A DNA stretch of 64,000 bases from the NCBI GenBank assembly GCA_944390265.1, contig CALXPK010000024.1, positions 11,183 through 75,182 of the forward strand. The letters run 5' to 3'. The position numbers were made by a program, and so were the translations under genes. Below the pieces are notes generated by a model. It worked only from the letters and a program-made list of their open reading frames with translations. It was not told the DNA's origin and searched no databases. This document shows, one piece after another, positions 1,970 to 19,855 of the stretch (the stretch's first letter is position 1; every line of letters begins with the position of its first letter). The stretch is from an uncultured Alphaproteobacteria bacterium (lineage in GTDB: Bacteria > Pseudomonadota > Alphaproteobacteria > RF32 > CAG-239).

Positions 1970-2052
1970 GTTTTTTCTCCAAAAATTTATCTTTGCGCCT
2001 AAAGTAGTGTTTTAATTTTGCTTTTGCAAGTGTTATGTCTGAGTTATAAAAA

Positions 2053-2088
2053 TAAAAAAAAGCTGCCTTGAAAGACAGCTTTTTTATC
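2053..2088. terminator. Intrinsic terminator downstream of greA, bidirectional A/T flanks
   Basis: agctgcc-ttgaaag-acagct hairpin flanked by A8 and T6. Confidence 0.6.
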
Positions 2089-2103
2089 TTTAGGTTTTGC
2101 TGA

Positions 2104-2577: not shown

Positions 2578-2625
2578 TTTCTCACCTCAACTAAAAATTA
2601 CGGATTGTGTATAAAATAAAAATTA

Positions 2626-2664
2626 AACTGCGACAGAGGCTCCGTCACAGCTTAATTTTTGTTT
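2626..2664 (-). promoter_or_regulatory. Intrinsic-terminator-like hairpin within the greA 5' leader (minus-strand sense); GraL-like leader attenuator
   Basis: Minus-strand reading gctgtgacggag-cc-tctgtcgcag (11-bp stem with 2 GU pairs) followed by tttaatttttatttta, 50-90 nt upstream of the greA start. Confidence 0.4.
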
Positions 2665-2811
2665 GTCTGCCTATCTATATAGCATCAATCTTTAAAGAAT
2701 GCAAGCGTTTTTCAATTTTGTTTGTTTTTCTGGGAAAAACTATAATTTGTACTATACAAAACTTTAGGCTATGCTATTTTATAAACGTTATTTTATATAC
2801 GGAGGTTTTTT

Positions 2812-3267
2812 ATGAAAAAAGTTGTTTTAGCATGCGCTGCCGCCGGAATGATGGCTTTGGCTTCCAATGCTCAGGCCATTGACAGTACCGGTTGCGGTTT
2901 GGGTTCTATGGCTTGGCGTGGTCAAAGCGGAATCGCTCCGCAGGTTTTGGCCGTTACCACCAACAATATTTTCTTTACCCAAACTTTCGGTATCACTTTC
3001 GGTACTTCAGGTTGCGACCCGAACGGTCGTGTGACCGGCGGTACCGGCAGAATGGTTTTGGCTTTTATGGAAAATAATATGGAGCAATATGCGCTTGATG
3101 CGGCGGCCGGTCGCGGTGAAACCATTGATACTTTGGCCGGTATCTTGAACATGGACAGCGCAAAACTCGGTGAAATCTCCAAACAAAATTTTGCTTATAT
3201 GTTTGAAGATGAAAATGTTGATGCCGTTAATGTTACTTTGAAATTGATGGAAGTGACCAAGGCTTAA
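2812..3267 (+). CDS. Secreted protein with signal peptide, tentatively DUF3015-like
   Basis: MKKVVLACAAAGMMALASNAQA signal peptide; RBS ggagg before the ATG; strong terminator follows. Confidence 0.6.
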   Translation: MKKVVLACAAAGMMALASNAQAIDSTGCGLGSMAWRGQSGIAPQVLAVTTNNIFFTQTFGITFGTSGCDPNGRVTGGTGRMVLAFMENNMEQYALDAAAGRGETIDTLAGILNMDSAKLGEISKQNFAYMFEDENVDAVNVTLKLMEVTKA

Positions 3268-3283
3268 GACTTTGTTTGTCCCG

Positions 3284-3325
3284 AAAAGCGGTTCGGAATT
3301 ATCTTTTTCGAGCCGCTTTTTGTTT
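3284..3325 (+). terminator. Intrinsic terminator
   Basis: aaaagcggttcg...cgagccgctttt stem followed by tgttt. Confidence 0.7.
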
Positions 3326-3330
3326 AGGAG

Positions 3331-5145
3331 TTGATGCGGTTGAAAAAAATTGTCTGTTTTGGGTTGTTGCTTATGTCGGCAACGCCGGCTTATGCCGGAT
3401 TTGAAAGCTCGCCCGAGTGGCTGGCCGTGGTGCATTATCAGGAAGAAAACGGGGAATATGTCAGCACGATTGACTCCGAGCCTTTTTTCTTATCAAAGGA
3501 AGGTAAAACCAATCCGCAAGCCGAATTGCAAGCCACGATTAATTTGTTTGAAAATACCGAGGATACCGAAAAGAAATGCCTCTTTCCGGCACGTTATAAG
3601 CTTTTGCAAAAAAACGGGCTCGTTTCCAAACCTTATCCTAAATGCAAAGATTTAGAGCAATTTTATGATGATTTGCGCCCCGCCGGCGTAACACTTCTGT
3701 TTACCGATGCTTATATGAACAATCCGTCCTCACTTTTCGGGCATACGTTGCTTAGAATCGATACCGCACGCAAGGGAACGCAACTTCTGGCGCATGGTGC
3801 CAACTACGGTGCCTTCACGGCGGGACAAGAAAACAGCGTGCTGTTTGCGATTTGGGGTTTGACCGGCGGTTATTACGGCGGGGTTACCGTTAAGCCTTAT
3901 TATGACATCATCCATATCTATAACAACATTGAAAACCGCGATATTTGGGAATTTAACCTTGATTTTACGCCGCAAGAACTGGACTTTTTGGTGGCGCATT
4001 TGTGGGAAGTGGGGCACTCTCAAACCAGATATTATTTCTTTACGCAGAATTGCTCTTATATGCTGATGGAAGTGCTGGATGCGGTGCGCCCATCAATGCA
4101 ACTCTCTCAGCAGTTTCCGGTACAGACCATTCCGCTTGATACCATTAAAGCGGTGTTGCAACGTCAAGGTTTGGTCAAAGATATTCATTATCGTCCCTCT
4201 AGGCAAGCCAAAATCAGGTATCGTTACAAGATGATGAATGACAAGCAAAAAGAGCAATATTTGGAAATCATTCACGAGCAAGAATATGATTTAACCGATT
4301 TATCCGAGCCGGAAAAAGCCGATGTGTTGGAAACGGCTTACCAGTTTGTGCAATATCAATATGTGGCCAAAAATTTGGAGCTTGCCGATTATCGCAAGCA
4401 AAGTTTCAAGCTCCTGATGGCGCGCAACAAAGTGACAGAGCAGGGAAGTATTGCCGAGCTCGACAAGGGTAAAGAGCCATATCTTACCCATGATTCCATG
4501 CGCTCGGAAATCGGCACCGGTTTTAGAAACGGGGAGGCTTTTCAGGAAATATCCTACCGGCCGGCTTATCATTCTTTGACCGATGATAACTATGGTTTTT
4601 TGCGCGGGGCAGAAATTAATTTCCTCAACACAACTTTGCGCCACTATGACGAACAAAACAAAACCGTGTTGCAGAAGTTTGATATTGTCGGCATCAAATC
4701 CATCTCGCCGATGGATGCGATGTTTCGACCTTTTTCGTATGAAATCAGATGGGATGTGGCGCGCGAATATAATCCCGATACACAAGATGAGGGCTATGTG
4801 ACCAACCTCAAGGTTGGAACCGGCGTTAGCTATGCTTTGACTGATGAGGTTTGGACTTATGCGCAGCTCAACAGCTATGTGGCATATGGCGGATTTTTGC
4901 CGGATAATGCTTATCTCGGTATGGGCGGAGCGGTCGGTGTGTTTGCCGATTTTGATAAATGGCGCTTGTTTACCGAAGCCGAGCAAGTCTATGCCACCGA
5001 CAAATTCGGCGAAAAGACCAAGCTCAATGTTGAAGGGGCCTATACACTCAATCGAAACAATGCTTTGGCCTTGCGTTATGTCAAAGAATGGCGCAGCGGC
5101 AAGGATATGGAAGAGAGTTTGCTCTCTTGGCGGCATTATTTTTAG
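3331..5145 (+). CDS. Exported DUF4105 (Lnb-like N-terminal domain) family protein with a C-terminal beta-rich region
   Basis: Signal peptide ...MSATPAYAGF; LLFTDAYMNNPSSLFGHTLLRID motif typical of DUF4105; 604 aa. Confidence 0.7.
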   Translation: MMRLKKIVCFGLLLMSATPAYAGFESSPEWLAVVHYQEENGEYVSTIDSEPFFLSKEGKTNPQAELQATINLFENTEDTEKKCLFPARYKLLQKNGLVSKPYPKCKDLEQFYDDLRPAGVTLLFTDAYMNNPSSLFGHTLLRIDTARKGTQLLAHGANYGAFTAGQENSVLFAIWGLTGGYYGGVTVKPYYDIIHIYNNIENRDIWEFNLDFTPQELDFLVAHLWEVGHSQTRYYFFTQNCSYMLMEVLDAVRPSMQLSQQFPVQTIPLDTIKAVLQRQGLVKDIHYRPSRQAKIRYRYKMMNDKQKEQYLEIIHEQEYDLTDLSEPEKADVLETAYQFVQYQYVAKNLELADYRKQSFKLLMARNKVTEQGSIAELDKGKEPYLTHDSMRSEIGTGFRNGEAFQEISYRPAYHSLTDDNYGFLRGAEINFLNTTLRHYDEQNKTVLQKFDIVGIKSISPMDAMFRPFSYEIRWDVAREYNPDTQDEGYVTNLKVGTGVSYALTDEVWTYAQLNSYVAYGGFLPDNAYLGMGGAVGVFADFDKWRLFTEAEQVYATDKFGEKTKLNVEGAYTLNRNNALALRYVKEWRSGKDMEESLLSWRHYF

Positions 5146-5217
5146 ATAATTTGCCTTGCAATTTTGCGCCCATGTGTTTATTCTCAAAACAATTGTTTTA
5201 CCTTAAGGAGAAAAAAG

Positions 5218-5670
5218 ATGTTAAGAGATGATTTGCAAAACACTTTGAAAGAATCGATGAAAAATCGCGATATGACCACCGTGTCTGCCGTGCGTTTGAT
5301 TATTGCCGCCATGAAAGAAAAAGATGTTGATGCACGTGGCCGCGGTCAAGAAAAAGCGACCGATGCCGAACTCTTATCCATGATGCAAGGCATGATTAAA
5401 CAACGCAAAGATTCCATCAAAATGTATTTGGACGGCAATCGTCAGGATTTGGCAGATAAAGAACAATCCGAAATTGACATTATTGAAAAATTCTTGCCCA
5501 AACAATTAAGCGGTGCCGAAATGGAAAATGCCATTAAAGCCGTGATTGCCGAAACAGGAGCTCAATCGATGAAAGATATGGGCAAAGTTATGGGTGCTTT
5601 GAAAGCAAAATATGCCGGTCAAATGGATATGGGTGCCGCCAACGGTGTGATTAAAAATTTGCTTGGCTAA
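5218..5670 (+). CDS. yqeY: GatB/YqeY domain protein
   Basis: RBS aaggag 7 nt upstream; 150 aa; lies upstream of dnaG-rpoD. Confidence 0.85.
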   Translation: MLRDDLQNTLKESMKNRDMTTVSAVRLIIAAMKEKDVDARGRGQEKATDAELLSMMQGMIKQRKDSIKMYLDGNRQDLADKEQSEIDIIEKFLPKQLSGAEMENAIKAVIAETGAQSMKDMGKVMGALKAKYAGQMDMGAANGVIKNLLG

Positions 5671-5692
5671 TTGATTAAGTTTTCTATAATAA

Positions 5693-7564
5693 ATGGCTGA
5701 TTTACAAAAGTTTTGCGATGAATTGCGCGCGAAGGTGTCGATTGTTGATGTGGTCGGCGCCAAGGTTAAACTCGTGCGCAAAGGGCGTGAATATCAGGCT
5801 TGTTGTCCGTTTCATAATGAAAAGACACCGTCTTTTACCGTGAATGAAAGCAAAGGTTTTTACCATTGCTTTGGGTGCGGTGCGCATGGTGATATCATCA
5901 AATTTGAGATGGAAGCCAATAATCTGTCATTTATGGAAGCCTTGGAAAAACTGGCGGATAAAGCCGGTTTGCAAGTGCCGCGGGATTCTTATGCCAAGCC
6001 GGAAGAGGTGGAACGCCGTAACTCGCTCTATGATATTATGGAGCTGGCTTGCAAGTTTTTTGAAAAATCATTGCGGATGCCGGAAGGAGCACGGGCGCTG
6101 GATTATTTATCTTACCGTGGTTTCGGTGATGATATCATCCAAAAATTTCGCTTAGGTTACGCGCCGAACAATAATGGGCTGAAGACTTATCTTTCCTCTA
6201 AAGGGGTGAAAGAAAATGAGATGCACGAGCTTGGGCTTTTGACCATCCCCGAAGATAAAACCCGTCGTCCGCATGACTTTTTCCGCGATCGTGTGATGAT
6301 TCCGATTATGGATAAACGCGGCAAGGTGATTGCCTTTGGCGGGCGTATTATGGGTGACGGCCAGCCCAAGTATCTGAACTCGCCGGAAACACCGGTTTTT
6401 AACAAACGTCGCGTGCTTTATAACCTTAACAATGCCAAAGATGCCGGATATCAGGAGAAAAAACTCATCATCTGCGAGGGGTATATGGATGTTATCGGCA
6501 TGGATAAATACGGCATTCATTATGCCGTGGCGCCCCTCGGAACGGCTTTGACCGAAGACCAAATTCAAGAGGCTTGGCGGGTGGTGGATGTGCCGACCTG
6601 TTGCTTTGACGGCGATTTGGCGGGGCGACGTGCCGCGGTGCGTTCGGTGGACCGCGTGTTGCCGATTTTGAAAGCCGGAAATTCCCTGCAATATGTTTTT
6701 TTGACCGGCGCCAAAGACCCTGATGAATTTTTGAAAACACTCGGCAGAGAGGCTTTTGATAAGGCTATATCTGAAGTTGTTCCGCTTAAAGATTTGATTT
6801 GGCAAAAAAACATCGAAGGAAGAGACGTTTCGACGCCGGAACAAAAAGCCTTGATTGAAAAAAATATCAAGGAAGAAGTGGCCAAAATCAGCGACGAAAC
6901 GGTGCGCAATTATTATATTCAAGAAATGCAAGATAAAATCTACAACGAGCTCGGCAAGGGAGCCAGCTGGCGCAAGCGTCAACAGGCGGTGCAGAGCGGG
7001 GCGCCGACTTATACCAAAGAGTTTGGGCGCAATTATCTGCAAAAATCTCGTTATGCGGCTAAAAATGACAGTGTTTCCGTGCGTCAGGCTCAGCTCGCCA
7101 CACCCAAAGTGCATTTGGACGAGCTGGTGGCAAAATATGTGGTTTCGGCTTTGGTTTTGTATCCGAATCTTGTGGACGAATATGAGGAAAAAATATCTAA
7201 TTTCAATATAAAAAATCCGCAACTTAATGCCTTACTTGAAAATATTATCTCCCTTAATGAGGATGAAAAAGTTGAGGATTTTGCCGCTATGTATGACAAA
7301 CTCAAACAGCGTGGTTTGCAAAAAGATGTTGATACGCTGTTGGAGTTTAAAATGCTTAAATTGCAGAACCCTAACGATGCTCGTATGCGCGAGAATTTGG
7401 ATTTGCGGATTTTGGAATCTCAGCTCAAACAGCTTGATGCCGAAATTAAGGAATGTTTGCGGGTGATGGAAACTTCCGACTCGCTTTCCGACGAGGTCTA
7501 TAAACGCTACGAGTCGCTCAAAAAAGAAAAAGAAAATTTGCTCGCGGCACAAGAATTTGATTGA
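5693..7564 (+). CDS. dnaG: DNA primase
   Basis: Zinc ribbon CCPFHNEKTPSFTVNESKGFYHCFGCGAHG; TOPRIM segment LIICEGYMDVIGM; 623 aa. Confidence 0.95.
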   Translation: MADLQKFCDELRAKVSIVDVVGAKVKLVRKGREYQACCPFHNEKTPSFTVNESKGFYHCFGCGAHGDIIKFEMEANNLSFMEALEKLADKAGLQVPRDSYAKPEEVERRNSLYDIMELACKFFEKSLRMPEGARALDYLSYRGFGDDIIQKFRLGYAPNNNGLKTYLSSKGVKENEMHELGLLTIPEDKTRRPHDFFRDRVMIPIMDKRGKVIAFGGRIMGDGQPKYLNSPETPVFNKRRVLYNLNNAKDAGYQEKKLIICEGYMDVIGMDKYGIHYAVAPLGTALTEDQIQEAWRVVDVPTCCFDGDLAGRRAAVRSVDRVLPILKAGNSLQYVFLTGAKDPDEFLKTLGREAFDKAISEVVPLKDLIWQKNIEGRDVSTPEQKALIEKNIKEEVAKISDETVRNYYIQEMQDKIYNELGKGASWRKRQQAVQSGAPTYTKEFGRNYLQKSRYAAKNDSVSVRQAQLATPKVHLDELVAKYVVSALVLYPNLVDEYEEKISNFNIKNPQLNALLENIISLNEDEKVEDFAAMYDKLKQRGLQKDVDTLLEFKMLKLQNPNDARMRENLDLRILESQLKQLDAEIKECLRVMETSDSLSDEVYKRYESLKKEKENLLAAQEFD

Positions 7565-10748: not shown

Positions 10749-11189
10749 ATGAAGAAAAGAGAATTGATTGTAGACAATGCCGAAAAAGCATTAAAGTCTA
10801 TGTTGGCTATGTTGGCTGCAAATATGATTGACAATGAGTTGGATAATTGTGAGGCAACCGAGAAAGGGGTTGAGTTGCAAGGAGTTAAATATCCGGTCAA
10901 ATTGGTTTGGTTGGAAAGAGGCGATAATGATTTGGTTGGTTGTCCTTGCTTTGCTTGCAATTTTAACGGAATGTTGCCTACGGGAGCTCATATTAAAGCA
11001 GTGGTTTATGTGAAGGCATTTGCGGCTCGGACTTTTACCATGTGCAAAATGCATATGTTAAAAGATGAAGGTAATGTAAAATGTCGAGAAATTGCTGACG
11101 GAGATTCGTTTGTGATGAACGACAACAGTAAGGGATACGGCGAAGAGACGTATCTTTACAAAAATGGCAAGATTTCTTTTGTGAAATAG
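10749..11189 (+). CDS. Hypothetical protein with CPCFAC and C-X-C zinc-ribbon-like motifs
   Basis: ORF followed by a terminator; the start position is uncertain. Confidence 0.45.
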   Translation: MKKRELIVDNAEKALKSMLAMLAANMIDNELDNCEATEKGVELQGVKYPVKLVWLERGDNDLVGCPCFACNFNGMLPTGAHIKAVVYVKAFAARTFTMCKMHMLKDEGNVKCREIADGDSFVMNDNSKGYGEETYLYKNGKISFVK

Positions 11190-11203
11190 GCTTTTTGATA
11201 GAT

Positions 11204-11238
11204 CTCGATAGATGGAATGTCTATCGGGATTTTTTTTG
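11204..11238 (+). terminator. Intrinsic terminator
   Basis: cgataga-tggaatg-tctatcg followed by ggattttttttt. Confidence 0.6.
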
Positions 11239-11305
11239 TTCAGGCGTTGAAAATAGGGCTTGACTATATGGTATGAATCGCCTATTTTCATAGCTGTCAA
11301 CTGGC

Positions 11306-11382
11306 GGGCCCATAGCTCAGTTGGTTAGAGCAGGCCGCTCATAACGGTCTGGTCGTTGGTTCGAGTCCATCTGGGCCCACCA
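11306..11382 (+). tRNA. tRNA with CAU anticodon, strongly resembling the lysidine-type tRNA-Ile2 (ileX); elongator Met is the alternative
   Basis: Cloverleaf folded by hand: acceptor GGGCCCA/TGGGCCC, D-arm GCTC-AGTTGGTTA-GAGC, anticodon arm GGCCG-CTCATAA-CGGTC, T-arm GTTGG-TTCGAGT-CCATC, ACCA end. Confidence 0.9.
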
Positions 11383-11383
11383 T

Positions 11384-11420
11384 AAAAAAATCCCCTCCCA
11401 AAGCGGAGGGGATTTTTTTA
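11384..11420 (+). terminator. Terminator directly after the tRNA
   Basis: atcccctcc-caaagc-ggaggggat followed by T7. Confidence 0.6.
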
Positions 11421-11619
11421 TGGTGAGAAGAAAGACAGCTCGAACCAACGAGGTCGTCGGGCTCGCAGGAACAAAAAATGTTTGGGAAACATTTTTTGCC
11501 GAGAGCTATAGCAGCGGTTAGGCGGCGACTTGCCGACAGGCAATTAAGCCGGTGTTACCGCTGGCTTGCCCGAAGCGGAGTTGTTGAGCGCTTTAAAAAG
11601 CGCGAAATTTACGAAGCAA

Positions 11620-11696
11620 GAAGAGTCCATCTGGGCCCACCATAAAAAAATCCCCTCCCAAAGCGGAGGGGATTTTTTTTATGGTGAGAAGAAAGA
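11620..11696 (+). repeat. Direct repeat of the tRNA 3' end (gagtccatctgggcccacca) plus terminator plus atggtgagaagaaagaca, a second copy of 11362..11437; att-like duplication
   Basis: About 76-bp near-identical direct repeat bracketing about 182 bp that includes an inverted partial T-arm copy (11441-11460, cgaaccaacgag). Confidence 0.7.
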
Positions 11697-11781
11697 CATT
11701 TTTTTTATGGTGAGAAGAAAGACATTTTTTTTATGGTGAGAAGAAAGACATTTTTTTTATGATGAGAAGAAAGATATTTTT
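11681..11781. repeat. Tandem repeat, 26-bp unit atggtgagaagaaagacatttttttt, 4 copies (last one degenerate)
   Basis: Read directly from the sequence; no unique spacers between units. Confidence 0.8.
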
Positions 11782-11865
11782 GGCGTGAGGGAAAAGATAT
11801 GATTGACAGCAGAACAAAAATGAATTTTACTCATCTGCAGATTTTATTTATGCGGTGGAGATAAT

Positions 11866-13026
11866 ATGAAAAAAATATTTTTGGCTTTGTTTTTCTTATT
11901 GTGCTCGGCAAACGCTGCCTCAGCCATGCAGATTTTTATTTTCACTTTGAACTCAAAACATATCACTCTGGAAGTTGAGCCTACGGATAAAGTGGAAGAT
12001 ATTAAACTGAAAATTTTGGATAAAGAAGGGGTGCCGGTCGATCAACAGCAATTAACTTTTGACGGCAAGGTGTTGAAAGATGGCTATACTTTGCAAGATT
12101 ATAGCATTCAAAAAGATTTTACTCTGAATTTGGTTTTGAAAAGTGAACTTAATATTGAGGCTTATCAGCTCAACTTTAATCCGGTTAATGTTGTCAGACA
12201 GAATACAGATATGTTGTTGAATACCATATCTTCTCGCACCACCGGCGGTATTCAGGCCTCAGCGGGCGGGGAGCAGATAAACCCCAAGGATAATTCATCT
12301 CTTTGGGTGAACAGCTTGACCGGACATTCCGAATATGCGGGAACAAATAGTAATGGTTTGGTCATGGGTTTTGAGAAAAAAACTTCGGCTTTTAAATATG
12401 GTTTGGGATATGGTTATTTGGAAAATGATATTGACGGCTTAAACTATGGTGCAGAAGCCAAAACACATTCCGGTTTTGTTTATGGTGAATATAAGCCTTC
12501 TTCTTGGTATGCTCATGCCATGCTGACCTATTCTCATTCGCGGTTTGAGGAAAATGATTTGAGCAAATATAATTTTCAGGCCGTCAGTTCTCAGATTATG
12601 AGCGGATATGATTTTGGCAATATAACGCCGGAAGCCGGTTTTAGATATATGCATATTTGGAATGATGATTATAGAGATGCAAAAAATGTTTATCTGTTTG
12701 AAAATGACGAAAATTTTTTGACGGGAATTGTCAGTGCCAAAGCGGACAAAGAGATAAAACTTGATAATGGATATCTCCTTGTGCCGCAGATTAAGGTTTC
12801 TGCCTTGTATGACTTGATGCAGGCAAATACTGATACGGGAGTTTTGATTTATGGGAATTATTATCAAATCAATACCGACAAAATTTCAAAATATGGTACG
12901 GAAATCAACCTCGGCGTTGAGCTGGCCAAGCAGAATCTTTGGTCCGCATATCTGGGTTATTACGGCCAGTTGAGAAATAATTATAATATGCATTCTGCGG
13001 TTTTGAATTTTCAATATGATTTTTAA
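11866..13026 (+). CDS. Autotransporter whose passenger is a eukaryote-like ubiquitin domain (signal peptide + Ubl + linker + C-terminal autotransporter beta-barrel)
   Basis: Signal peptide [20 protein letters not shown]; residues 21-92 [72 protein letters not shown], about 46/72 identical to ubiquitin by hand alignment; C-terminal about 250 aa with [13 protein letters not shown]... and terminal NFQYDF typical of autotransporter beta-domains. Confidence 0.85.
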
Positions 13027-13258
13027 TTGCTTTTGGATTAAATTCAACTTTGATAAATTGGAACATTGTGAAAAGCATCGGAGATTAATTTAAAGTCAAC
13101 AGTTTTCGGAAGAAGTCGGTGTTTATATGATTTGGTGCTTGTGTTTTGCGGCAATAGATATATTTGATGTTTCTAATATTCAATTATAAAAAATAAGTGC
13201 ACAAAAGGCAAAAAAACTATTTTCTTTTATAAAATTTGTGTTATAACGCTGTCGTTAT

Positions 13259-13335
13259 GGGCGTGTAGCTCAGGTGGTTAGAGCGCTACGTTCACATCGT
13301 AGAGGTCACAAGTTCGAGTCTTGTCACGGCTACCA
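13259..13335 (+). tRNA. tRNA-Val (anticodon CAC)
   Basis: Cloverleaf folded by hand: D-arm GCTC-AGGTGGTTA-GAGC, anticodon arm CTACG-TTCACAT-CGTAG, T-arm ACAAG-TTCGAGT-CTTGT, ACCA end; one G-G mismatch at pair 3-70. Confidence 0.85.
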
Positions 13336-13340
13336 ATTTA

Positions 13341-13378
13341 TAAAACGGACTCCAAATTTTCGGAGCCCGTTTTTTTTG
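13341..13378 (+). terminator. Terminator-like hairpin after the tRNA
   Basis: acggactcc...ggagcccgt followed by T8. Confidence 0.5.
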
Positions 13379-13738
13379 AGCCTTTATTCAATGGCGAAAA
13401 ATATACATTTATCGACAGATGTTTAAAGTTTGTAATACATAACTTATTGTTACTTATAATTCTTTGTTTTTTTTAGTGTTTTTTACAAAATAAAAGTTGA
13501 CTTTGTGTTTTGTGTTGCTACTATTGTGGTCAACCATTAACCAAGACTTTTGTATTGTGAATATCATATGTCTGAATGCCTGTTCAAAATGTTACAACTG
13601 ACGGAGTTTGCCTGTGATTGATACCAAAATTGCCGCTTGTTGTCCTTTGTTTTGTTTTGAAACGTGGCAGAATTTATCTCCTACTGCAACTATTTGCAAA
13701 AATTGTCAAAAAATCTTCAGAAGACAAAGGAAAAATCA

Positions 13739-15037
13739 ATGAAAATCGGAATTATCGGAACAGGCTACGTGGGGCTGCCGACCGGTGTCGGTTTGGCCGA
13801 ACTTGGCAACGAGGTGATGTGTATTGACCGAGAACCAACCAAAATCAACGCTTTGAAAGCCGGCAAAATTACTCTCTATGAGGCCGGATTGGAAGACTTG
13901 TTCCACAAAAATGTCAATGAAGGGCGTTTGCATTTTACCACCTCCATGAAAGAGGGTGTGGAAAATGCCGATATAGTGATTATTGCCGTCGGAACCCCGC
14001 CGCATCCGGTGACAAAAGAGGCTGATATGAAATATATTCATGCGGCCGCTACCGAACTGGCCGAATATTTGACCGGATATACCGTGGTGGCCGTGAAATC
14101 GACCGTGCCCGTCGGTACCGGTGATGATGTCGAGGCTCTTATTGCCAAAAAGAATCCGCATGCCGATTTTGATGTGATTTCTTTGCCTGAGTTTTTGCGC
14201 GAAGGTTTTGCCGTGCATGACTTTTATCATCCCGACAGGGTTGTGGTCGGTGCCGATAGCCCCAAAGCCAGACAACTTATTCAGAAATTGTATCAGCCGT
14301 TTGAAGGTCAGACTTCCGTTTTGTTTGTTAAACGTCGTTCCAGCGAAACCATTAAATATGCCTCCAATGCCTTTTTGGCGATGAAAATTCATTATATCAA
14401 CGAAATGGCTGATTTTTGCGAAAAAACCGGCGCCGATATTTATGAAGTGGCCAAAGGAATGGGCTTGGACAGCCGAATCGGGCCAAAATTTTTGAATCCG
14501 GGGCCGGGGTATGGCGGTAGTTGTTTTCCCAAAGATACTATGGCGATGTCTTATATGGCTCGGCAAAACGGCGTTAATATGACGCTGATTAATGCCGCTA
14601 TTGAAGGGAATCGGAACCGCAAAAAACAGATGGCAAAACGGATTTTGGATGCGGCTAAAGGAATTGAAAAACCGCGAATCGGCGTTTTGGGTTTGGCTTT
14701 CAAAAACGGAACCGATGATTGTCGGGAGAGTCCGGCCATTGAAATCGTGAGTGAGCTGATTAATCACGGGGCTTTGGTGACGGCTTATGACCCCAAAGCC
14801 ATGAATACGGCGCAAAAACTGCTCGGAGATAAGATAAGCTATGCTTCGGATATGTATCAAGCACTTGAAAAAGCCGACGTCTTGGCTGTTTTGACCGAAT
14901 GGGATGAGTTCAGAACTTTGGATTTGACCAAAGCGGCGCAGGTTATGAATCATAAAAATATTGTAGATTGCCGAAATTTGATTTGTCCCGATGAGGCCAA
15001 AAAATCAGGCTTTGCATATGAGGGAATCGGTCGATGA
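13739..15037 (+). CDS. ugd: UDP-glucose 6-dehydrogenase (nucleotide-sugar dehydrogenase family)
   Basis: RBS aaagga 7 nt upstream; MKIGIIGTGYVGLPTG Rossmann motif; GYGGSCFPKD active site. Confidence 0.9.
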   Translation: MKIGIIGTGYVGLPTGVGLAELGNEVMCIDREPTKINALKAGKITLYEAGLEDLFHKNVNEGRLHFTTSMKEGVENADIVIIAVGTPPHPVTKEADMKYIHAAATELAEYLTGYTVVAVKSTVPVGTGDDVEALIAKKNPHADFDVISLPEFLREGFAVHDFYHPDRVVVGADSPKARQLIQKLYQPFEGQTSVLFVKRRSSETIKYASNAFLAMKIHYINEMADFCEKTGADIYEVAKGMGLDSRIGPKFLNPGPGYGGSCFPKDTMAMSYMARQNGVNMTLINAAIEGNRNRKKQMAKRILDAAKGIEKPRIGVLGLAFKNGTDDCRESPAIEIVSELINHGALVTAYDPKAMNTAQKLLGDKISYASDMYQALEKADVLAVLTEWDEFRTLDLTKAAQVMNHKNIVDCRNLICPDEAKKSGFAYEGIGR

Positions 15038-15897
15038 ACAAAAAAATTGTTTATACTTGCATTTGCGGCGATTATGATAGCTTGGTCAAACAAAAATATG
15101 TGGCCGAAGATTATACTTATGTTTGTTTTACCGATAATCCGGATTATTTGAAAAAAGGTAGGGTTTTCAACTGGATTATTCGGCCGCTGGTTTTTGACAA
15201 ACTTGATGCTACCCACAACAATCGGTGGCACAAACTGCATCCGCATCTCTTGTTTCCCGACTGCGAAATCAGCATTTATATTGATGCCAATATCAATATT
15301 CTTTCACCTTATCTTTTTGAAAAAATTGAGGCCACCGATAAAGATTTGCTTATCCATAAACATTATGACCGAGATTGCGTTTTTGATGAAGCGCAAAAGA
15401 TTAAAAGTTTGCACAAAGACAGTGATGAAAATATTGATAAGATGCTGGCCTTTTTGGAGCAAGAGAAAATGCCCAGACATTACGGCCTGACCGAAAATAA
15501 TGTTTTGTGTCGCAAAAATACGCCGCTGTGCCGCAAAATTATGGAAGAATGGTGGTATTTTGTTCTCAACTATACCAAACGTGACCAAATGTCTTTGATG
15601 TATGTGTTGTGGAAAAACGGTCTCAAAGCTACCGATGTTTATTGGGAAGGCGACCGCAAAAATATTTATCGCTCCCAAAATCATGTAACTTATATTCCCA
15701 ATAATATGAAAATTTTCAACTTCGTGAAGCAAAAAGAATATGATATTTTTTATTTGTTGCGGGTTCCGGTTTTTAAAATTCGCAATAAGCCAAACAAAAA
15801 ATATGTATATCTTTTGGGTGTGAAAGTTTTATCCATTTCACCAAAGAAGGTTATGTTGTTTGGCATGATTCCACTCTATTATAAAATATTCAAATGA
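15034..15897 (+). CDS. DUF616-type (TOD1/MUCI70-like) glycosyltransferase
   Basis: 4-nt overlap with ugd; family call based on my recollection of the DUF616 architecture. Confidence 0.65.
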   Translation: MNKKIVYTCICGDYDSLVKQKYVAEDYTYVCFTDNPDYLKKGRVFNWIIRPLVFDKLDATHNNRWHKLHPHLLFPDCEISIYIDANINILSPYLFEKIEATDKDLLIHKHYDRDCVFDEAQKIKSLHKDSDENIDKMLAFLEQEKMPRHYGLTENNVLCRKNTPLCRKIMEEWWYFVLNYTKRDQMSLMYVLWKNGLKATDVYWEGDRKNIYRSQNHVTYIPNNMKIFNFVKQKEYDIFYLLRVPVFKIRNKPNKKYVYLLGVKVLSISPKKVMLFGMIPLYYKIFK

Positions 15898-15907
15898 GGA
15901 AAAGACA

Positions 15908-16852
15908 ATGAAAGCATTGATAACAGGCGGCGCCGGTTTTATCGGTTCAACCCTTGCGGATAAACTTTTGGCCGAAGGTCACGAGGTGATTGTTGTTGAT
16001 AACTTCAGCGACTATTATGATGTGAAACTCAAATGGCAAAATGTGGCGGCCAATATGAATAATCCGCATTATAAACTTTATGTGACCGATATTGAAAATA
16101 AGACGGCGTTGCGCAAGGTTTTTGAAGAAAACAACATAGATTGCGTTGTCCATTTTGCCGGAAGAGCCGGGGTCAGACCTTCTATTGAAATGCCGGAAGA
16201 ATATGTGAAGGCAAATATTTTGGGGGCGGTTCATGTTTTTGAACTGATGAAAGATTTTGGGGTGAAAAAAATTGTTTTTGCCTCTTCTTCTTCCGTTTAC
16301 GGAAATTGCAAGGCAGAAAAATTTTCCGAAGATTTAAATGTGCGTGAGCCCATTTCTCAATATGCGGCCAGCAAATCGGCCGATGAGCAATTTGCCTATA
16401 CTTATTCAAAATTGTATGGAATCAACGTTGTTTGTTTGCGCTTTTTTACGGTATACGGCCCGCGTCAGAGACCGGATTTGGCCATTAGAAAATTTATTGA
16501 ACTGATTGAACAGGACAAGCCTATCCAGATGTATGGCGATGGCAGCAGTATGCGCGATTATACCTATGTGGATGATATTGTGGCCGGTGTTCGTGCCGCT
16601 ATGGATTATGACAAAACGGCTTATGAAATTATTAATATCGGGGGAAGCTCTCCGGTGACTTTGCGCCAAATGATTGCCACGATTGAAAAAGTTTTGGGTA
16701 AAAAAGCCAAAATTGAACAACTCCCGATGCAAAAAGGCGATGTTGACAAAACCGTTTCCGACATATCCAAAGCCGCCAGACTTTTGGGTTATGCCCCACA
16801 AACCAGTTTTGAAGAAGGTATACAAAAGTTTGTTAAATGGAGAAAGCAATGA
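15908..16852 (+). CDS. NAD-dependent nucleotide-sugar epimerase, probably UDP-glucuronate 4-epimerase
   Basis: MKALITGGAGFIGSTL motif; YAASK catalytic pair; follows ugd. Confidence 0.85.
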   Translation: MKALITGGAGFIGSTLADKLLAEGHEVIVVDNFSDYYDVKLKWQNVAANMNNPHYKLYVTDIENKTALRKVFEENNIDCVVHFAGRAGVRPSIEMPEEYVKANILGAVHVFELMKDFGVKKIVFASSSSVYGNCKAEKFSEDLNVREPISQYAASKSADEQFAYTYSKLYGINVVCLRFFTVYGPRQRPDLAIRKFIELIEQDKPIQMYGDGSSMRDYTYVDDIVAGVRAAMDYDKTAYEIINIGGSSPVTLRQMIATIEKVLGKKAKIEQLPMQKGDVDKTVSDISKAARLLGYAPQTSFEEGIQKFVKWRKQ

Positions 16853-17922
16853 GCTTTTTTCAAAAAATAAGATATCCTAACGGGAAAAGAAAAGTCTTAT
16901 TCTTGGGTAAGAAAATTTTTTCTTATAGGGTCAAAAAAAATGAAAATGCAAAAGTTTTTTTACCTGATAGTTGCTTTGAAAAAAACGATATTTCCGCGGA
17001 ATCAATAAAGGTGGTTTATAAGCCTTTTATTAGTTTAAGTTTAGTTCCTGATTTTATTGCAAATAAAGATATTTATTATAATGAAGATAAACCCAATTTA
17101 TTAGCTAATTTGGACTCAGAATCCTATCGTACAATAATGACGGTATTAAATAAATATGAATATTTGTCCAATGGAGGAAGTAAAGATTTATTAGAAACAT
17201 CGGCGCAAATTCGATATAATAATACAGTTGTTAAGTCGTTTCTAAATAGCATTGAAAAACAAAAAGATGGAACTTATAAGTATAAAGATTTTATCTTGCC
17301 CGAAAATCATTTTGAAACTTCGGTTTTTTTAGATGAACATGGTTTGAATAAAATAAACAAAAAGTTTGTAAATGGTATAATTATTGACGTTGGTAGTTAT
17401 ATTGGTGATTCTATTCTAATTTTTAGAAAACATTTTCCGGATAATCAGATTATTGGTTTTGAAGCAACGACATGTAATTATGAGATGGCTTTGCAAACTC
17501 TAAAGTTAAATAATCTTAAAAATGTTCTGGTAGAAAATTTAGCACTTGGAGATAAAGAAGGAAGTTTAACTTTATCAACCGATCAAGGAAGCGGTAATAG
17601 TTGGGAATTTTCGTATTTATCTGAAAAAGTTGAACATTGTAAAATGGAGACATTTGATAATTATGTTAAAAAGCACAAGATAAAAAAAGTTGGTTTGATA
17701 AAAGTTGATATTGAAGGTGCGGAACAACTTTTTATTCGAGGGGCATTAGAAACAATTAAACGAGATAAGCCCATTATATTGATGAGTATTTATCATAATT
17801 ATGATGATTTGATGCATATTAAACCTTTTTTTGAAAAATTGAATCTTGGCTATACATTCAAAATTCACAAGCCGATAGATACTATTTTTAATGAAATATT
17901 GCTTATATGCCTACCTTTATAA
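16849..17922 (+). CDS. FkbM-family SAM-dependent methyltransferase with an N-terminal extension that begins with a shared leader motif
   Basis: GIIIDVGSYIGDS methyltransferase motif I; N-terminus MSFFQKIRYPNGKRKVLFLGKKIFSY aligns with the N-terminus of 21367..23853; very AT-rich. Confidence 0.8.
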   Translation: MSFFQKIRYPNGKRKVLFLGKKIFSYRVKKNENAKVFLPDSCFEKNDISAESIKVVYKPFISLSLVPDFIANKDIYYNEDKPNLLANLDSESYRTIMTVLNKYEYLSNGGSKDLLETSAQIRYNNTVVKSFLNSIEKQKDGTYKYKDFILPENHFETSVFLDEHGLNKINKKFVNGIIIDVGSYIGDSILIFRKHFPDNQIIGFEATTCNYEMALQTLKLNNLKNVLVENLALGDKEGSLTLSTDQGSGNSWEFSYLSEKVEHCKMETFDNYVKKHKIKKVGLIKVDIEGAEQLFIRGALETIKRDKPIILMSIYHNYDDLMHIKPFFEKLNLGYTFKIHKPIDTIFNEILLICLPL

Positions 17923-17940
17923 ATGCTAAAAAAATTTTAA

Positions 17941-18636
17941 TTGGAAAAGTTGATGAAAAAAATTTTTGTTGAGACAGATTTTGCAAAATTGGATGTTGCT
18001 CGAAAACAACGAACCGGTTTTCCTGAGACGGTTTTTTGTTTGGGAAAGAGTAAAGAGCAAGTTGCTGATATCTTGCAGAATTTTGCATCGGTCGGGCAAA
18101 ATGTTTTGGGAACAAAATGTTCTCCTGAACAATTTGATTTTGCTTTGAAAAAAGGCTTGCCGGTTAAATATGATTCTTTATCACGAGTGATAAGCCTCGG
18201 GCAAAAAGAGACTAATCCTTTTAGGGGAAACATTGCCGTGTGCTGTGCAGGTACATCTGATTTGCCGATTTTGGAAGAAGCTGCTCAAGTTGCCGAATTT
18301 TTTGGAGCTGTTGTTGAAAGGTATGTTGATATCGGTGTTGCCGGAATCCAGCGTTTGTTTGCACAAATTGATAATATTCAAAAGGCTGACGTTGTTATTG
18401 CCGTGGCCGGAATGGAAGGGGCTTTGGCCAGCGTGTTGGCCGGTTTGGTCAGAACTCCGGTGATTGCCGTTCCGACATCGGTGGGATATGGCGCCTCTTT
18501 TCATGGTTTGGCGGCCATGCTTGCCATGCTTAATTCATGTGCCGAAGGCGTGTCGGTTGTTAATATTGATAATGGGTTTGGCGCTGCGGTTCAGGCTTGT
18601 CGAATCTTAGCACTAAAAGGAAGGATGAATGACTAA
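17941..18636 (+). CDS. larB: LarB, nickel-pincer nucleotide biosynthesis carboxylase/hydrolase (PurE-like)
   Basis: AVAGMEGALASVLAGLVRTPVIAVPTSVGYGASFHGLAAMLAMLNSCAEGVSVVNIDNGFGAA matches the LarB/PurE-like core. Confidence 0.85.
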   Translation: MEKLMKKIFVETDFAKLDVARKQRTGFPETVFCLGKSKEQVADILQNFASVGQNVLGTKCSPEQFDFALKKGLPVKYDSLSRVISLGQKETNPFRGNIAVCCAGTSDLPILEEAAQVAEFFGAVVERYVDIGVAGIQRLFAQIDNIQKADVVIAVAGMEGALASVLAGLVRTPVIAVPTSVGYGASFHGLAAMLAMLNSCAEGVSVVNIDNGFGAAVQACRILALKGRMND

Positions 18637-19855
18637 ATATTTATATTTTGACGGGTCTTGCGGTATTGCAGGAGATATGACAGTGGCGGCTCTGTTGGAT
18701 TTGGGTGCTCGTCGTGAAAAGTTGCAACAGGTTTTGGAAAGCCTAAAGTTGGATGGTGTGCATTATCATATTTCTCAAAAGTCTTCTTATAGTATTTTCG
18801 GGTGCGATTTTGATGTCCATCTTCTGCAGAAAACAGATTCTCATGAAGAAGAATATCTTATGAATGCACATCATCATGAACATCGTCATCATGAACATCG
18901 TCATTTGTCTGATGTGTATGAAATTATTGACCGTGGAAAAATGAGCGAAAGGGCACGCCTTTTGGCTAAAAAAATATTTGAAATAGTGGCACAGGCCGAA
19001 GCTAAAGCTCATGGCGTGAAGGTTGAAGATGTGCATTTTCATGAAGTGGGGGCTTTAGATTCAATTGTTGATATTGTTTCGGTTGCCGTGTTGATTGATG
19101 ATTTGGGTATTGAAAACTGTATTGTTACCGGTTTAAATGAAGGGCATGGCTTTGTTACTTGTCAGCATGGAAGTCTGCCGGTTCCGGTTCCTGCTGTTTT
19201 GAATATTGCCGAAAAATATGGCTTGATTTTGCGGCCGACCTCGGTTGAAGGTGAGATGGTGACACCTACCGGTATTGCCGTTGTTGCCGCTTTGAAAACA
19301 GATGCAAAACTTCCTCCTGCTTATAAAATTTTGAAGTCTGGTGTCGGGTTGGGAAAAAGAGATTTTGGTCGAGCTAATTTTTTGCGAGTTCAAATTATTG
19401 AAGATGTGGCTGACGAGAAACAAATTTTTGTAATTGAGAGTAATATTGATTATACCAGTGCCTAAGAATTGGGCTTTGCTCAAGAAAAACTGTTTGCTGC
19501 AAGTGCTTTGAATGTGCAGTTTGATCAAAAAAAAAAAAAAAAATGCCGACCGGCTTATCTGTTACGAATCATTTGCTCGGCTGATAAAGTTTCTGCTTTG
19601 GAAAAAGTTCTTTTTGAAAATACCTCGTCTATCGGTTGTCGGAAATATGTCGTGGAAAGAACAGTTATGACGCGTGAAAATATTTTAGTGCAGCTTGATT
19701 ACGGTCAAGTTAGCGTAAAAAAGTGTTGCTATTTGGATTTGGTGCGTTTTTATCCAGAATTTGAAAGTGTTAGACAATTGGCTTTGCAAACAGGTTTGTC
19801 TTTTCGAAAAATTTTTGATGATGCAAAATTGAAAGCTGAAGAAAACAAATGTTAG
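18629..19855 (+). CDS. larC: LarC nickel insertase (DUF111): the N- and C-terminal parts are in the same frame, separated by a single TAA at 19463-19465; an A17 tract lies at 19527-19543
   Basis: N-terminal part MTKYLYFDGSCGIAGDM... with His-rich HHHEHRHHEHRH; C-terminal part ...GCRKYVVERTVMTRENILVQLDYGQVSVKK... typical of the LarC C-terminal domain; both parts in frame 2. Confidence 0.75.

Follow-up and report, generated by a model that had tools for sequence, protein, structure and literature searches.

The gene at positions 11866–13026 (+ strand) of the window, by which we mean the whole stretch of 64,000 nt that was analysed, appears to encode a minimal type Va (classical) autotransporter whose sole passenger is one eukaryote-derived ubiquitin domain. 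According to this reading, to which we give a probability of about 0.6, the domain would have been resident in gut bacteria for a long time, and in this particular copy its partner specificity would probably be altered or weakened. The first-pass annotation of the same DNA had placed here one gene for an autotransporter that displays ubiquitin, and the gene is present as called: a single continuous open reading frame of 386 aa, closed by a TAA stop codon (13024–13026, +) and preceded, 5 nt 5' of the ATG, by a Shine-Dalgarno-like GGTGGAG read from the sequence (11854–11860, +).

Residues 1–20 (11866–11925, +) have the sequence features of a Sec signal peptide: an initial MKK, a hydrophobic core of 10 residues (mean Kyte-Doolittle 3.2, residues 4–13), and ASA before M21, where signal peptidase I is predicted to cut. 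As had been reported before, MQIF follows the predicted signal peptide directly in the translation, although a cut between ANA and ASA, three residues earlier, is possible from the sequence. The junction of AxA with MQIF is kept throughout the aligned family, and about 100 further ubiquitin proteins of bacteria among the matches listed share it. The only cysteine of the protein, C13, lies inside the signal peptide, and the mature protein is devoid of cysteine. A lipoprotein reading of C13 was rejected, as the preceding F-L-L does not fit a lipobox and the cysteine is absent in the homologues.

Residues 21–92 (11926–12141, +) correspond to ubiquitin 1–72, without the LRGG tail, by PF00240, phmmer and the AlphaFold model. 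They are identical to human ubiquitin 1–72 at 46 of 72 positions (63.9%), which reproduces the earlier hand alignment, and to the ubiquitin of T. foetus at 52 of 72. In the Pfam scan, PF00240 matched residues 23–92 with 74 bits (cut-off 25.4, E 8e-21), and phmmer against human ubiquitin chains of the PDB gave E ~1e-24 per unit, a likeness well past what chance would give. In support of that, the predicted structure has the strand and helix order of ubiquitin, a beta-grasp, over residues 21–91, and Foldseek matched the modelled head to many ubiquitin chains with TM of at least 0.9 and an rmsd of 0.5–1.0 Å. A placement of residues 21–95 in a ThiS/MoaD family had been named beforehand as the outcome that would speak against ubiquitin; Pfam matched ubiquitin instead, and at E ≤ 1 the scan returned only ubiquitin, Rad60-SLD and DUF2604, and no ThiS/MoaD. 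Judged from its sequence, the stretch of residues 21–92 is eukaryotic ubiquitin proper.

The alignment also confirms what had been said of single residues. The equivalents of K48, K63, L8 and V70 are kept, as are those of K11, K27, K29 and K33, and I44 is replaced by T; further changes relative to human ubiquitin are K6F, R42Q, H68N and R72K, with SELN in place of LRGG. The C-terminal LRLRGG is indeed lost, positions 72–76 reading KSELN and the chain running on into the autotransporter, and with the Gly-Gly tail absent the domain cannot be conjugated. The I44 hydrophobic patch (L8, I44, H68, V70) is not intact: L8 and V70 are kept, I44 and H68 are changed. Its flanks are changed as well (K6F, R42Q, A46D, Q49V, R72K).

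Ubiquitin is joined to the rest of the protein by a short tether of 13 aa (residues 93–105; 12142–12180, +), a low-confidence non-regular segment in the model, whose length and sequence vary across the family. It leads to a linker alpha-helix (residues 106–122; 12181–12231, +; DSSP on the AlphaFold model), which would be expected from the model to be the pore-filling helix of a type Va autotransporter. The autotransporter translocator (residues 123–386; 12232–13023, +), delimited by TIGR01414, the model and Foldseek, consists of a pre-barrel segment and 12 long beta-strands (144–384). TIGR01414 (autotrans_barl) matched residues 108–386 with 37.3 bits against a curated cut-off of 16; the AlphaFold model of the full protein (pLDDT 85.3, pTM 0.70) contains the ubiquitin fold, the helix and the 12 long strands; and the best solved-structure matches of the barrel in Foldseek were EspP (TMt 0.63), AaaA and EstA. 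The alignments to EspP and EstA cover 302–319 columns, more than the 243 residues of the barrel, and thus extend into the helix region. The earlier assignment of the C-terminal ~250 aa to a 12-strand autotransporter translocator agrees with all three lines of evidence. The protein ends with VLNFQYDF, the last six letters being as claimed; with its terminal F and Y at −3 this end is beta-signal-like, and a terminal F, L or I is kept in nearly all aligned family members.

One expectation of the first-pass annotation failed, as a scan of the window protein gave no match to PF03797 at E ≤ 1. The same profile does match full-length homologues (L013 and L015 at 97–158 bits, and several clusters), and, given the null result, the barrel assignment rests on TIGR01414, on structure and on these homologues. 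When the barrel alone was searched with HMMER, 873 representatives matched, most of them long autotransporters. Neither the model nor Pfam showed a beta-helical stalk or an autochaperone segment, and an Asn-Asn pair of the EspP/SPATE type was absent from the linker, residues 93–143. Surface display of the window ubiquitin is well supported in silico; we infer that the domain would be exposed at the surface and would not be released.

The proposed mechanism would run as follows. The precursor would be exported by the Sec system, and signal peptidase I would cut after ASA, making Met1 of ubiquitin the mature N-terminus. The C-terminal 12-strand barrel would then be inserted in the outer membrane, its pore occupied by the linker helix, and the ~8-kDa ubiquitin domain would be left outside the cell on a tether of ~13 residues. 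There, the tail-less domain would act through non-covalent binding, as a fixed surface module. As to its history, ubiquitin of the trichomonad type may have entered gut bacteria long ago and would now head many surface proteins, nearly unchanged in most lineages. That most lineages carry near-unchanged copies suggests for those copies a partner able to recognise authentic ubiquitin, for which a protein of the animal host or of a gut protist is the most plausible candidate. Two general considerations count against the proposal. Ubiquitin folds fast and is very stable, and folded passengers are generally thought to be poorly tolerated in autotransporter secretion; moreover, classical ubiquitin-binding proteins are cytosolic, and so beyond reach in the extracellular setting of the gut.

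The window protein is not alone. Full-length homologues were found in at least 12 GTDB species of gut Alphaproteobacteria and form about 30 full-length clusters at 90% identity; long members have 881 aa (L015) and 870 aa (P0286), and ubiquitin is still their N-terminal tip. Mean identity within the family is 80% for ubiquitin versus 36% for the barrel. The relatives keep nearly every surface residue of ubiquitin, among them the seven lysines without exception and the eight lineage-specific sites described below, which differ among eukaryotes; the residues that vary are R42, R72, V70 and the tail, i.e., those most tied to the eukaryotic conjugation machinery. A complete LRLRGG, with an extension starting in DFD directly after it, is kept in the P0009 cluster (CAG:495-type) only.

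The claim that the domain was acquired from a eukaryote is supported and can be narrowed to trichomonad-type ubiquitin. The polyubiquitin unit of T. foetus differs from human ubiquitin at eight sites, at which the window domain has six trichomonad states and no human state. The P0009 protein is identical to the T. foetus unit at 76 of 76 positions, LRLRGG included. None of the named animals, plants, fungi and ciliates among the matches listed exceeds 89% identity to the T. foetus type, in a polyubiquitin search that ranked long polyubiquitins first and in which parabasalids other than T. foetus were not among the matches listed. Descent of the window ubiquitin from trichomonad-type (parabasalid) ubiquitin is supported by these sequence comparisons. 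Two family members, P0018 and P0165, carry non-trichomonad states, and the origin may therefore not be single.

Synonymous differences among the ubiquitin copies are saturated (median pS 0.89) and pN is low, 0.01–0.1 in the relatives; in the pair L005 and L007, pS is 0.88 and pN 0.012, and the barrels are only ~40% identical. By these values, the ubiquitin of the relatives is under extreme purifying selection. GC3 of ubiquitin follows host GC (r = 0.90 over 73 loci), and in the window gene it does not differ between ubiquitin and the remainder (0.39 in both), the codon composition also equalling that of the genome. Saturated synonymous sites together with GC3 matching the host indicate that the acquisition is old, and that the gene is not a recent island. 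A recent transfer from a protist was rejected, since no bacterial copy exceeds 79% nucleotide identity to the T. foetus units, the window copy has 62%, and synonymous sites are saturated. Repeated re-acquisition as the cause of the protein identity is unlikely, as GC3 tracks host GC.

The same observations bear on the suspicion of a chimera, formed in assembly from ubiquitin DNA of a eukaryote and an autotransporter gene of a bacterium, a suspicion that arises because the source is of the metagenome type and such samples contain ubiquitin DNA of gut eukaryotes. This reading is already refuted. The ORF is continuous, and its bacterial signal peptide runs in frame into Met1; ubiquitin shares its GC3 with the rest of the gene and has only 62% nucleotide identity to T. 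foetus ubiquitin; and a second assembly and many independent MAGs, with contigs of up to 1.9 Mb, have the same architecture. In that second assembly, the same gene (P0001, 100% identical in the search listing) has the same downstream neighbours, and the ubiquitin stretch of its contig, L001, differs from the window by one residue, D39N.

The gene is situated, as described earlier, in a 1.9-kb gap between two tRNA genes, which we measured as 1876 bp. The neighbours, given for context only, are tRNA-Met (CAT; 11306–11382, +; ARAGORN, and Rfam RF00005 at 65 bits) upstream and tRNA-Val (CAC; 13259–13335, +; ARAGORN and Rfam) downstream. The att-like duplications reported beside the gene exist as an exact 57-nt direct repeat, its copies 100% identical and spaced by 260 nt in the repeat search. 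Copy 1 (11363–11419, +) is made up of the last 20 nt of tRNA-Met, a G+C hairpin and a T run, and the att-like copy 2 (11623–11679, +) lies 5' of the gene; because both are upstream, the pair does not bracket the gene. The gene is AT-rich as stated, yet mildly so, with 37.7% GC versus 41.4% in the window and 31–50% in local windows of 500 bp. A reading of the locus as a recent island was rejected, as the 57-nt repeat does not flank the gene and neither GC nor GC3 is anomalous. The upstream (promoter) region contains a 26-nt tandem repeat, ATTTTTTTTATGGTGAGAAGAAAGAC, in ~4.5 copies (11672–11801, +; repeat search), whose length varies, being ~30 nt shorter in the second strain in the alignment with L001. 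An Rfam scan of 11000–13700 gave nothing above threshold except tRNA-Met and tRNA-Val, and a promoter and terminator scan gave one weak promoter-like site within the tandem repeat and called no terminator. Conserved synteny with the relatives was not found, indicating that the gene moved or that the genomes were rearranged. No E1- or E2-like gene was seen downstream, where the genes were annotated with Pfam, or in the ORFs directly upstream, which lay outside that scan.

Of the family copies whose DNA was compared, the window ubiquitin is the most diverged, with pN of 0.15–0.23 to the relatives. It has 20 changes from the trichomonad sequence, versus six in its nearest relative, P0002 (66/72), and compared with P0002 its ubiquitin is 69% identical, no higher than the barrel with 65%. 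Three changes (A46D, S65F, I23V) affect columns in which the other 18 members do not vary, and two more (H68N, N54Y) affect columns kept in 17 of those 18. All of this is what could be expected if the function of the family had been lost in the window lineage and the gene were a drifting remnant. We regard such decay as improbable. The ORF is unbroken, two independent assemblies agree on it almost fully, and the signal peptide, the junction, the fold and the barrel are all preserved. The changes in the hydrophobic core are conservative (V5I, I23V, V26I, I36V), and changes cluster on one face instead of being spread at random: the I44 face holds 9 of the 20 (Fisher p = 0.0016, with the set of face residues defined after the data had been seen). 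Moreover, the same positions of the face change step by step in the sister clusters P0002, P0003 and P0006 (I44V/M, R42K/T/I, H68N), which resembles a shift within a subclade and not a collapse. In the preferred reading, constraint on the ubiquitin of the window lineage appears to have been loosened or shifted and the I44 face rebuilt, so that the partner specificity of this copy is probably altered or weakened. The notion of a ubiquitin mimic, put forward from the sequence at first, is thus weaker for the window copy than for its relatives.

That the I44 face of the window copy has drifted while its fold is confidently predicted would also fit a purely structural role, in which the small, stable and protease-resistant ubiquitin nucleates folding and so draws the polypeptide across the outer membrane, or caps the tip as an inert module, and has no ubiquitin-specific partner. 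Ubiquitin always forms the extreme N-terminal tip, on minimal and long autotransporters and on unrelated Gram-positive anchors, and variation in the family falls on the residues linked to conjugation (R42, R72, V70, tail), as such a role would allow. Nevertheless, we consider it unlikely: exposed residues should then change freely, but the relatives keep nearly all of them over saturating synonymous divergence. In addition, ubiquitin is the sole passenger in the minimal members, which leaves nothing for it to cap.

The same head, a signal peptide plus ubiquitin, occurs in ~100 other surface proteins of gut bacteria among the matches listed, also on wall-anchored proteins of Gram-positive bacteria; the conservation seen in this wider set is partly a matter of ascertainment, as loci were fetched by the pattern QDYSIQKD and proteins by words shared with the query. 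A literature search, outside which most subscription-journal papers lay, found nothing on ubiquitin-autotransporters or on the wider set of signal-peptide-ubiquitin proteins. Tentatively, and with distinctly less confidence than for the gene itself, the window gene may belong to a large, hitherto undescribed class of surface proteins in gut bacteria, with tips of ubiquitin captured from trichomonads, kept nearly unchanged for engaging ubiquitin-recognising proteins of protists or hosts. Such a class might comprise autotransporters of Alphaproteobacteria and wall-anchored proteins of Clostridia, Bacilli, Bacteroidota, Actinomycetota and others. If it is real, the ubiquitin head may serve attachment to protists or the host, escape from digestion, or modulation, and a CAG:495-type protein with LRLRGG could release authentic ubiquitin on meeting a deubiquitinase. 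Most of the bacterial lineages conserve the domain about as tightly as eukaryotes do, although bacteria have no ubiquitin system. Heads that match the ubiquitin of trichomonads and not that of the host, conserved so tightly across gut bacteria, suggest a strong selective interaction at the bacterial surface. The pattern is a sign of genes having passed between gut protists and bacteria, and possibly of direct interplay; it also bears on the link that has been proposed between bacterial ubiquitin mimicry and anti-ubiquitin autoantibodies.

Among known proteins, the window protein can be likened to BfUbb and BoUbb of Bacteroides fragilis and B. ovatus, which are also eukaryote-derived, belong to a gut bacterium, and have a Sec signal peptide directly before Met1 and no Gly-Gly. 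These only characterised bacterial homologues of ubiquitin are Sec-exported, tail-less antibacterial toxins (PMC5705921, PMC11467351, PMC11901371), and the identity of BfUbb to human ubiquitin, ~63–64%, is like that of the window domain (PMC3352274). As the latter likewise starts right after the signal peptide and lacks Gly-Gly, it could be an interbacterial weapon of the same kind, freed from its barrel to enter competitors and poison a periplasmic target, e.g., a peptidyl-prolyl isomerase. We think this quite improbable. The activity of BfUbb needs a disulfide of its C-terminal cysteine (PMC11901371), and the mature window protein is cysteine-free. BfUbb is a free toxin of 76 aa, taken up via a Bacteroides SusCD transporter and directed at a PPIase, whereas the window domain belongs to an alphaproteobacterium and is fused in frame to a linker and barrel of 294 residues, i.e., covalently tied to a membrane barrel, with no EspP/SPATE-type Asn-Asn pair in the linker; moreover, the same head is found on wall-anchored proteins of Gram-positive bacteria. 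The window domain, which carries diagnostic residues of the trichomonad type, is identical at only 36 of 72 positions to a BfUbb sequence whose identity was checked only by its score of 166.7 bits against PDB 8hm3_A. Of the eight diagnostic sites, five (12, 22, 25, 54, 60) have canonical and not trichomonad states in that sequence.

ThiS/MoaD and the bacterial systems of ubiquitin-like conjugation share the beta-grasp fold with it, but the window domain scores as eukaryotic ubiquitin and lacks a C-terminal Gly-Gly. With eukaryotic polyubiquitin, UBA52 and RPS27A it shares a ubiquitin placed N-terminally on a longer polypeptide, and the P0009 protein, in which LRLRGG is followed by an extension, is arranged as are the natural precursors that deubiquitinases cleave (PMC10892293). 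The window protein differs from these in having KSELN for RLRGG, and thus no Gly-Gly cut site, and in its predicted destination, the bacterial surface, where a deubiquitinase is not expected. Finally, it resembles the type Va autotransporters EspP, EstA, AaaA and NalP in its predicted signal peptide, its passenger, linker helix, C-terminal 12-strand barrel and terminal aromatic residue. In contrast to them, its passenger is neither a beta-helix nor a large enzyme but a single eukaryotic beta-grasp domain of 72 residues, in a protein of 386 aa in total. Eukaryote-type ubiquitin in bacteria has so far been treated as a curiosity of Bacteroides; the window locus would represent a different use of it, as the sole cargo of an outer-membrane autotransporter.

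The gene at 11866-13026 on the forward strand is a single unbroken open reading frame running from ATG to TAA, with a Shine-Dalgarno-like GGTGGAG 5 nt upstream on the same strand, and encodes a protein of 386 amino acids. The sequence of this product bears out the first-pass annotation, which had predicted a signal peptide followed by MQIF: residues 1-20 are built like a signal peptidase I substrate, with MQIF directly behind them. A gap-free alignment of residues 21-92 with ubiquitin positions 1-72 gave the 46/72 identities to human ubiquitin (63.9%) that had been counted earlier, and the residue-level statements made then all hold in it. L8, K11, K27, K29, K33, K48, K63 and V70 are retained, whereas K6F, R42Q, I44T, H68N and R72K are changed and SELN stands in place of LRGG. 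With this tail, the domain is non-conjugatable. Its likeness to ubiquitin is far above chance, as the Pfam ubiquitin profile PF00240 matched the protein with 74 bits (E 8e-21) and phmmer against PDB ubiquitin chains gave E values of ~1e-24 per unit.

The ~250-residue C-terminal part had been read as an autotransporter translocator, which is supported by a sequence profile, the predicted structure and the homologues. The NCBIfam model of the autotransporter outer-membrane beta-barrel, TIGR01414, scored 37.3 bits (cut-off 16) over residues 108-386. The barrel profile suggested earlier, PF03797, had no match on the window protein at E<=1 in a Pfam scan, but it did match several full-length homologues, and related longer proteins scored 97-158 bits. 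The AlphaFold2 model (mean pLDDT 85.3, pTM 0.70), for which 19 family sequences were aligned, predicts a ubiquitin fold at 21-91, a helix at 106-122 and twelve long strands within 144-384. When this model was compared with the PDB by Foldseek, its head matched dozens of ubiquitin chains with an rmsd of 0.5-1.0 Å, and the best matches of its barrel were the EspP barrel (TM 0.63 on target), AaaA and full-length EstA. The C-terminal end, ...NFQYDF, is a typical outer-membrane beta-signal. Since profiles, predicted structure and homologues agree, an architecture of signal peptide, ubiquitin and autotransporter barrel is very probable; the finding is real, and the earlier interpretation was essentially right. 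By analogy with type Va secretion, Sec would export the precursor, which would be cut before ubiquitin Met1; the barrel would be inserted in a BAM-dependent manner with the helix in its pore, a geometry that we infer for residues 106-122 from homology, and the ubiquitin domain would come to lie outside the cell on a tether of ~13 residues.

The window protein does not stand alone but belongs to a family. In an independent ENA assembly, a nearly identical protein (P0001) is shown as 100% identical to it, with the ubiquitin stretch on its contig (L001) differing at one residue, D39N, and with the same downstream genes, UDP-glucose dehydrogenase and a polysaccharide-synthesis cluster. Metagenome data contained ~30 clusters of full-length homologues with 35-65% identity. 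Among uncultured gut Alphaproteobacteria, a full-length copy is carried by at least 12 species-level genomes, such as those of 'Proteobacteria bacterium CAG:495', HGM16787/8 and UMGS1296; besides these, a rumen MAG carries a partial ubiquitin copy. The AxA/MQIF junction occurs in all aligned members, and just one copy has been given a name, 'autotransporter domain-containing protein'. A search of 1.84 billion representatives with the barrel alone (residues 100-386 plus the stop, 100-387 of the translated reference) returned 873 relatives, mostly autotransporters of 600-1700 aa; an N-terminal ubiquitin was found in the top three matches and in 8 of the best 150 of these 873. In two long autotransporters, one at L015 4255-6900 (881 aa) and the other P0286 (870 aa), signal peptide and ubiquitin are followed by ~500 aa more of passenger and by the barrel, with a strong PF03797 match in the scan of L015; thus, some large surface proteins, too, have ubiquitin as their distal head. 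The nearest genomic relative, the human-gut MAG MGYG-HGUT-04400 (L014), in which neighbouring genes share 71-95% protein identity with those of the window, has two adjacent large autotransporters of 690 and 1171 aa at 1039-6879, one of which contains a Chlamydia PMP repeat. Their barrels are 29-32% identical to that of the window protein, and both are without ubiquitin.

As described before, the gene lies in a gap of 1.9 kb, measured here as 1876 bp, between tRNA-Met (11306-11382) and tRNA-Val (13259-13335). Of the att-like duplications reported beside it, an exact 57-nt direct repeat does exist (11363-11419 and 11623-11679; the last 20 nt of tRNA-Met, the downstream hairpin and a T run), but both copies are upstream of the gene and enclose only ~200 bp. 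The tRNA-linked island hinted at was therefore not borne out, as the repeats do not bracket the gene and local GC is unremarkable; the pair looks like a scar of integration or excision at the tRNA that does not enclose the ubiquitin gene. Between the two copies, these ~200 bp include a piece of the tRNA T-arm in inverted orientation (11439-11451 vs 11353-11365). A 26-nt tandem repeat (ATTTTTTTTATGGTGAGAAGAAAGAC) of ~4.5 copies lies at 11672-11801, with its end 65 nt ahead of the ATG; in the second strain, L001, this region is ~30 nt shorter and has several substitutions, and its varying length may tune expression of the gene. Downstream of tRNA-Val, 13664-19465 holds surface polysaccharide genes (UDP-glucose 6-dehydrogenase, a TOD1/MUCI70-type glycosyltransferase, an epimerase and a methyltransferase), followed by the Pfam families AIRC, Ni_insertion and ATP_bind_3/NAD_synthase, which we take to resemble LarB/LarC/LarE-type cofactor genes. 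No functional link of these genes to the ubiquitin gene is evident. The surroundings of the ubiquitin gene differed in each of the related species that were examined.

Acquisition from a eukaryote, proposed earlier, was supported and could be narrowed down. Among the matches listed, the best eukaryotic match to the window protein was the polyubiquitin of Tritrichomonas foetus, whose unit departs from the human sequence at eight sites (T12H, S20T, T22R, N25D, R54N, S57Q, N60S and E64D). Six of these sites are in the trichomonad state in the window domain and none in the human state, and the overall identity of the domain is 52/72 to the T. foetus unit vs 46/72 to human ubiquitin. In P0009, a CAG:495-type cluster of 176 sequences (L005 6061-6288) with one member found on 177 contigs, the ubiquitin is identical to the T. 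foetus unit at 76/76 positions and keeps LRLRGG, directly followed by the autotransporter linker (DFDSAMN...); in principle, this is a deubiquitinase-cleavable linear fusion. Among the matches listed for T. foetus polyubiquitin, identities were 77-89% for the named animals, plants, fungi and ciliates, for a dictyostelid and for an oomycete. In the homologue listing for the window protein, the sole other named 100% match came from a termite gut. Parabasalids are abundant in termite guts. On these grounds we call the putative donor trichomonad/parabasalid-type, T. foetus being the parabasalid compared. Two family members, P0018 and P0165, are canonical (animal/plant-like) at several of these eight sites, e.g., T22, N25, N60 and E64, possibly reflecting a second eukaryotic source or, with the barrel family unchanged, a swap of the ubiquitin module.

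Repeated recent capture could be ruled out as the cause of this protein identity. Nei-Gojobori counts on ubiquitin codons 1-69 of the bacterial copies (2346 pairs) gave a median pS of 0.89, which is saturated, and a median pN of 0.14; no copy exceeded 79% DNA identity to the T. foetus units, and ubiquitin GC3 (0.13 to 0.83) tracked the GC of flanking bacterial DNA (r = 0.90, 73 loci). In the window, GC3 is 0.39 both in ubiquitin and in the rest of the gene. The family copies L005 and L007 match T. foetus ubiquitin in protein across 69 codons (pS 0.88, pN 0.012 between them), with barrels only ~40% identical to that of the window. Mean identity in the family alignment was 80% for ubiquitin vs 36% for the barrel. 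Thus, purifying selection in bacteria can, on these counts, account for the identity; the ubiquitin of the relatives is a long resident under strong constraint, not a fresh island.

In the DNA-level comparison of family copies, the window copy is the most diverged; on the protein side, P0018 alone of the aligned sequences is farther from the trichomonad type. The window copy differs from that type at 20 positions vs 6 in its nearest relative P0002 (66/72), with which it shares 69% identity in ubiquitin and 65% in the barrel. Nine of the 20 changes (K6F, T9N, G10S, R42Q, I44T, A46D, Q49V, H68N and R72K) fall on the 14 positions of the I44 face and its rim (Fisher p 0.0016, with the face defined post hoc). 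Core changes are conservative (V5I, I23V, V26I and I36V), and AlphaFold2 predicts the fold with confidence. The I44 binding face has been rebuilt in this copy. At the changed positions, sister clusters show intermediate states (I44V or I44M, R42K/T/I, H68N). The most variable family positions are 40, 42, 44, 49, 70, 72 and the tail, and nearly all other surface residues, including the seven lysines and the eight lineage-specific sites, are retained in 15-18 of 18 sequences. A purely structural role of the domain is possible, but hard to square with such conserved exposed residues. Because of this constraint in the relatives, we favor recognition of the domain as ubiquitin by some partner in most lineages, most plausibly a protist or host protein. 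The full explanation, in which the domain is displayed on the surface and acts by binding, has in our estimate a probability of roughly 60%. One published lead for a host target might be CXCR4, to which ubiquitin minus the last two residues binds without causing activation (PMC10892293).

The matches listed also included ~100 bacterial proteins other than autotransporters (P0040-P0120; loci L016-L081), in nearly all of which a cleavage site of the AxA type immediately precedes ubiquitin. Their ubiquitin resembles that of trichomonads more than the human one, by ~eight of 72 residues; Gly-Gly is gone in almost all of them, and their C-terminal parts carry choline-binding, SLH, Listeria-Bacteroides (Flg_new) or other surface repeats. 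The pattern that retrieved the loci was the peptide QDYSIQKD, and the proteins came in via words shared with the query, so that conservation there is partly built in; diagnostic sites 12, 20, 22, 25 and 54 fall outside the pattern. The carriers, whose hosts include human, mouse, chicken, rabbit and ruminants, are mainly gut Clostridia, Bacilli, Bacteroidota, Actinomycetota and Selenomonadales; in the genome scan, such genes were located in Ruminococcaceae, Oscillospiraceae, Lachnospiraceae, Bacilli, Erysipelotrichaceae, Selenomonadales, Collinsella, Eggerthellaceae, Parabacteroides, Segatella copri and a Nomurabacteria MAG. In an uncultured Tenericutes MAG (L045 6049-6264), codon 24 of ubiquitin is an in-frame stop under table 11, reflecting either a pseudogene or codon reassignment.

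The eukaryote-type ubiquitins described in bacteria are BfUbb and BoUbb of Bacteroides (PMC3352274, PMC5705921, PMC6194340, PMC11467351, PMC11901371), and no others were found in the literature searched. That search, with most subscription journals outside it, found no description of ubiquitin-autotransporters or of the wider family. BfUbb is of a different ubiquitin lineage: the BfUbb sequence used for comparison, which scores 166.7 bits against PDB 8hm3_A, is identical to the window domain at 36/72 positions, and five of its eight diagnostic sites (12, 22, 25, 54 and 60) are canonical. A toxin role like that of BfUbb is unlikely for the window protein, whose ubiquitin is of another lineage than BfUbb and covalently anchored, and whose mature form is without cysteine. 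Taken together, the window protein joins two known kinds, the autotransporter and the bacterial ubiquitin homologue, in a new combination, and opens onto a larger, apparently undescribed phenomenon.
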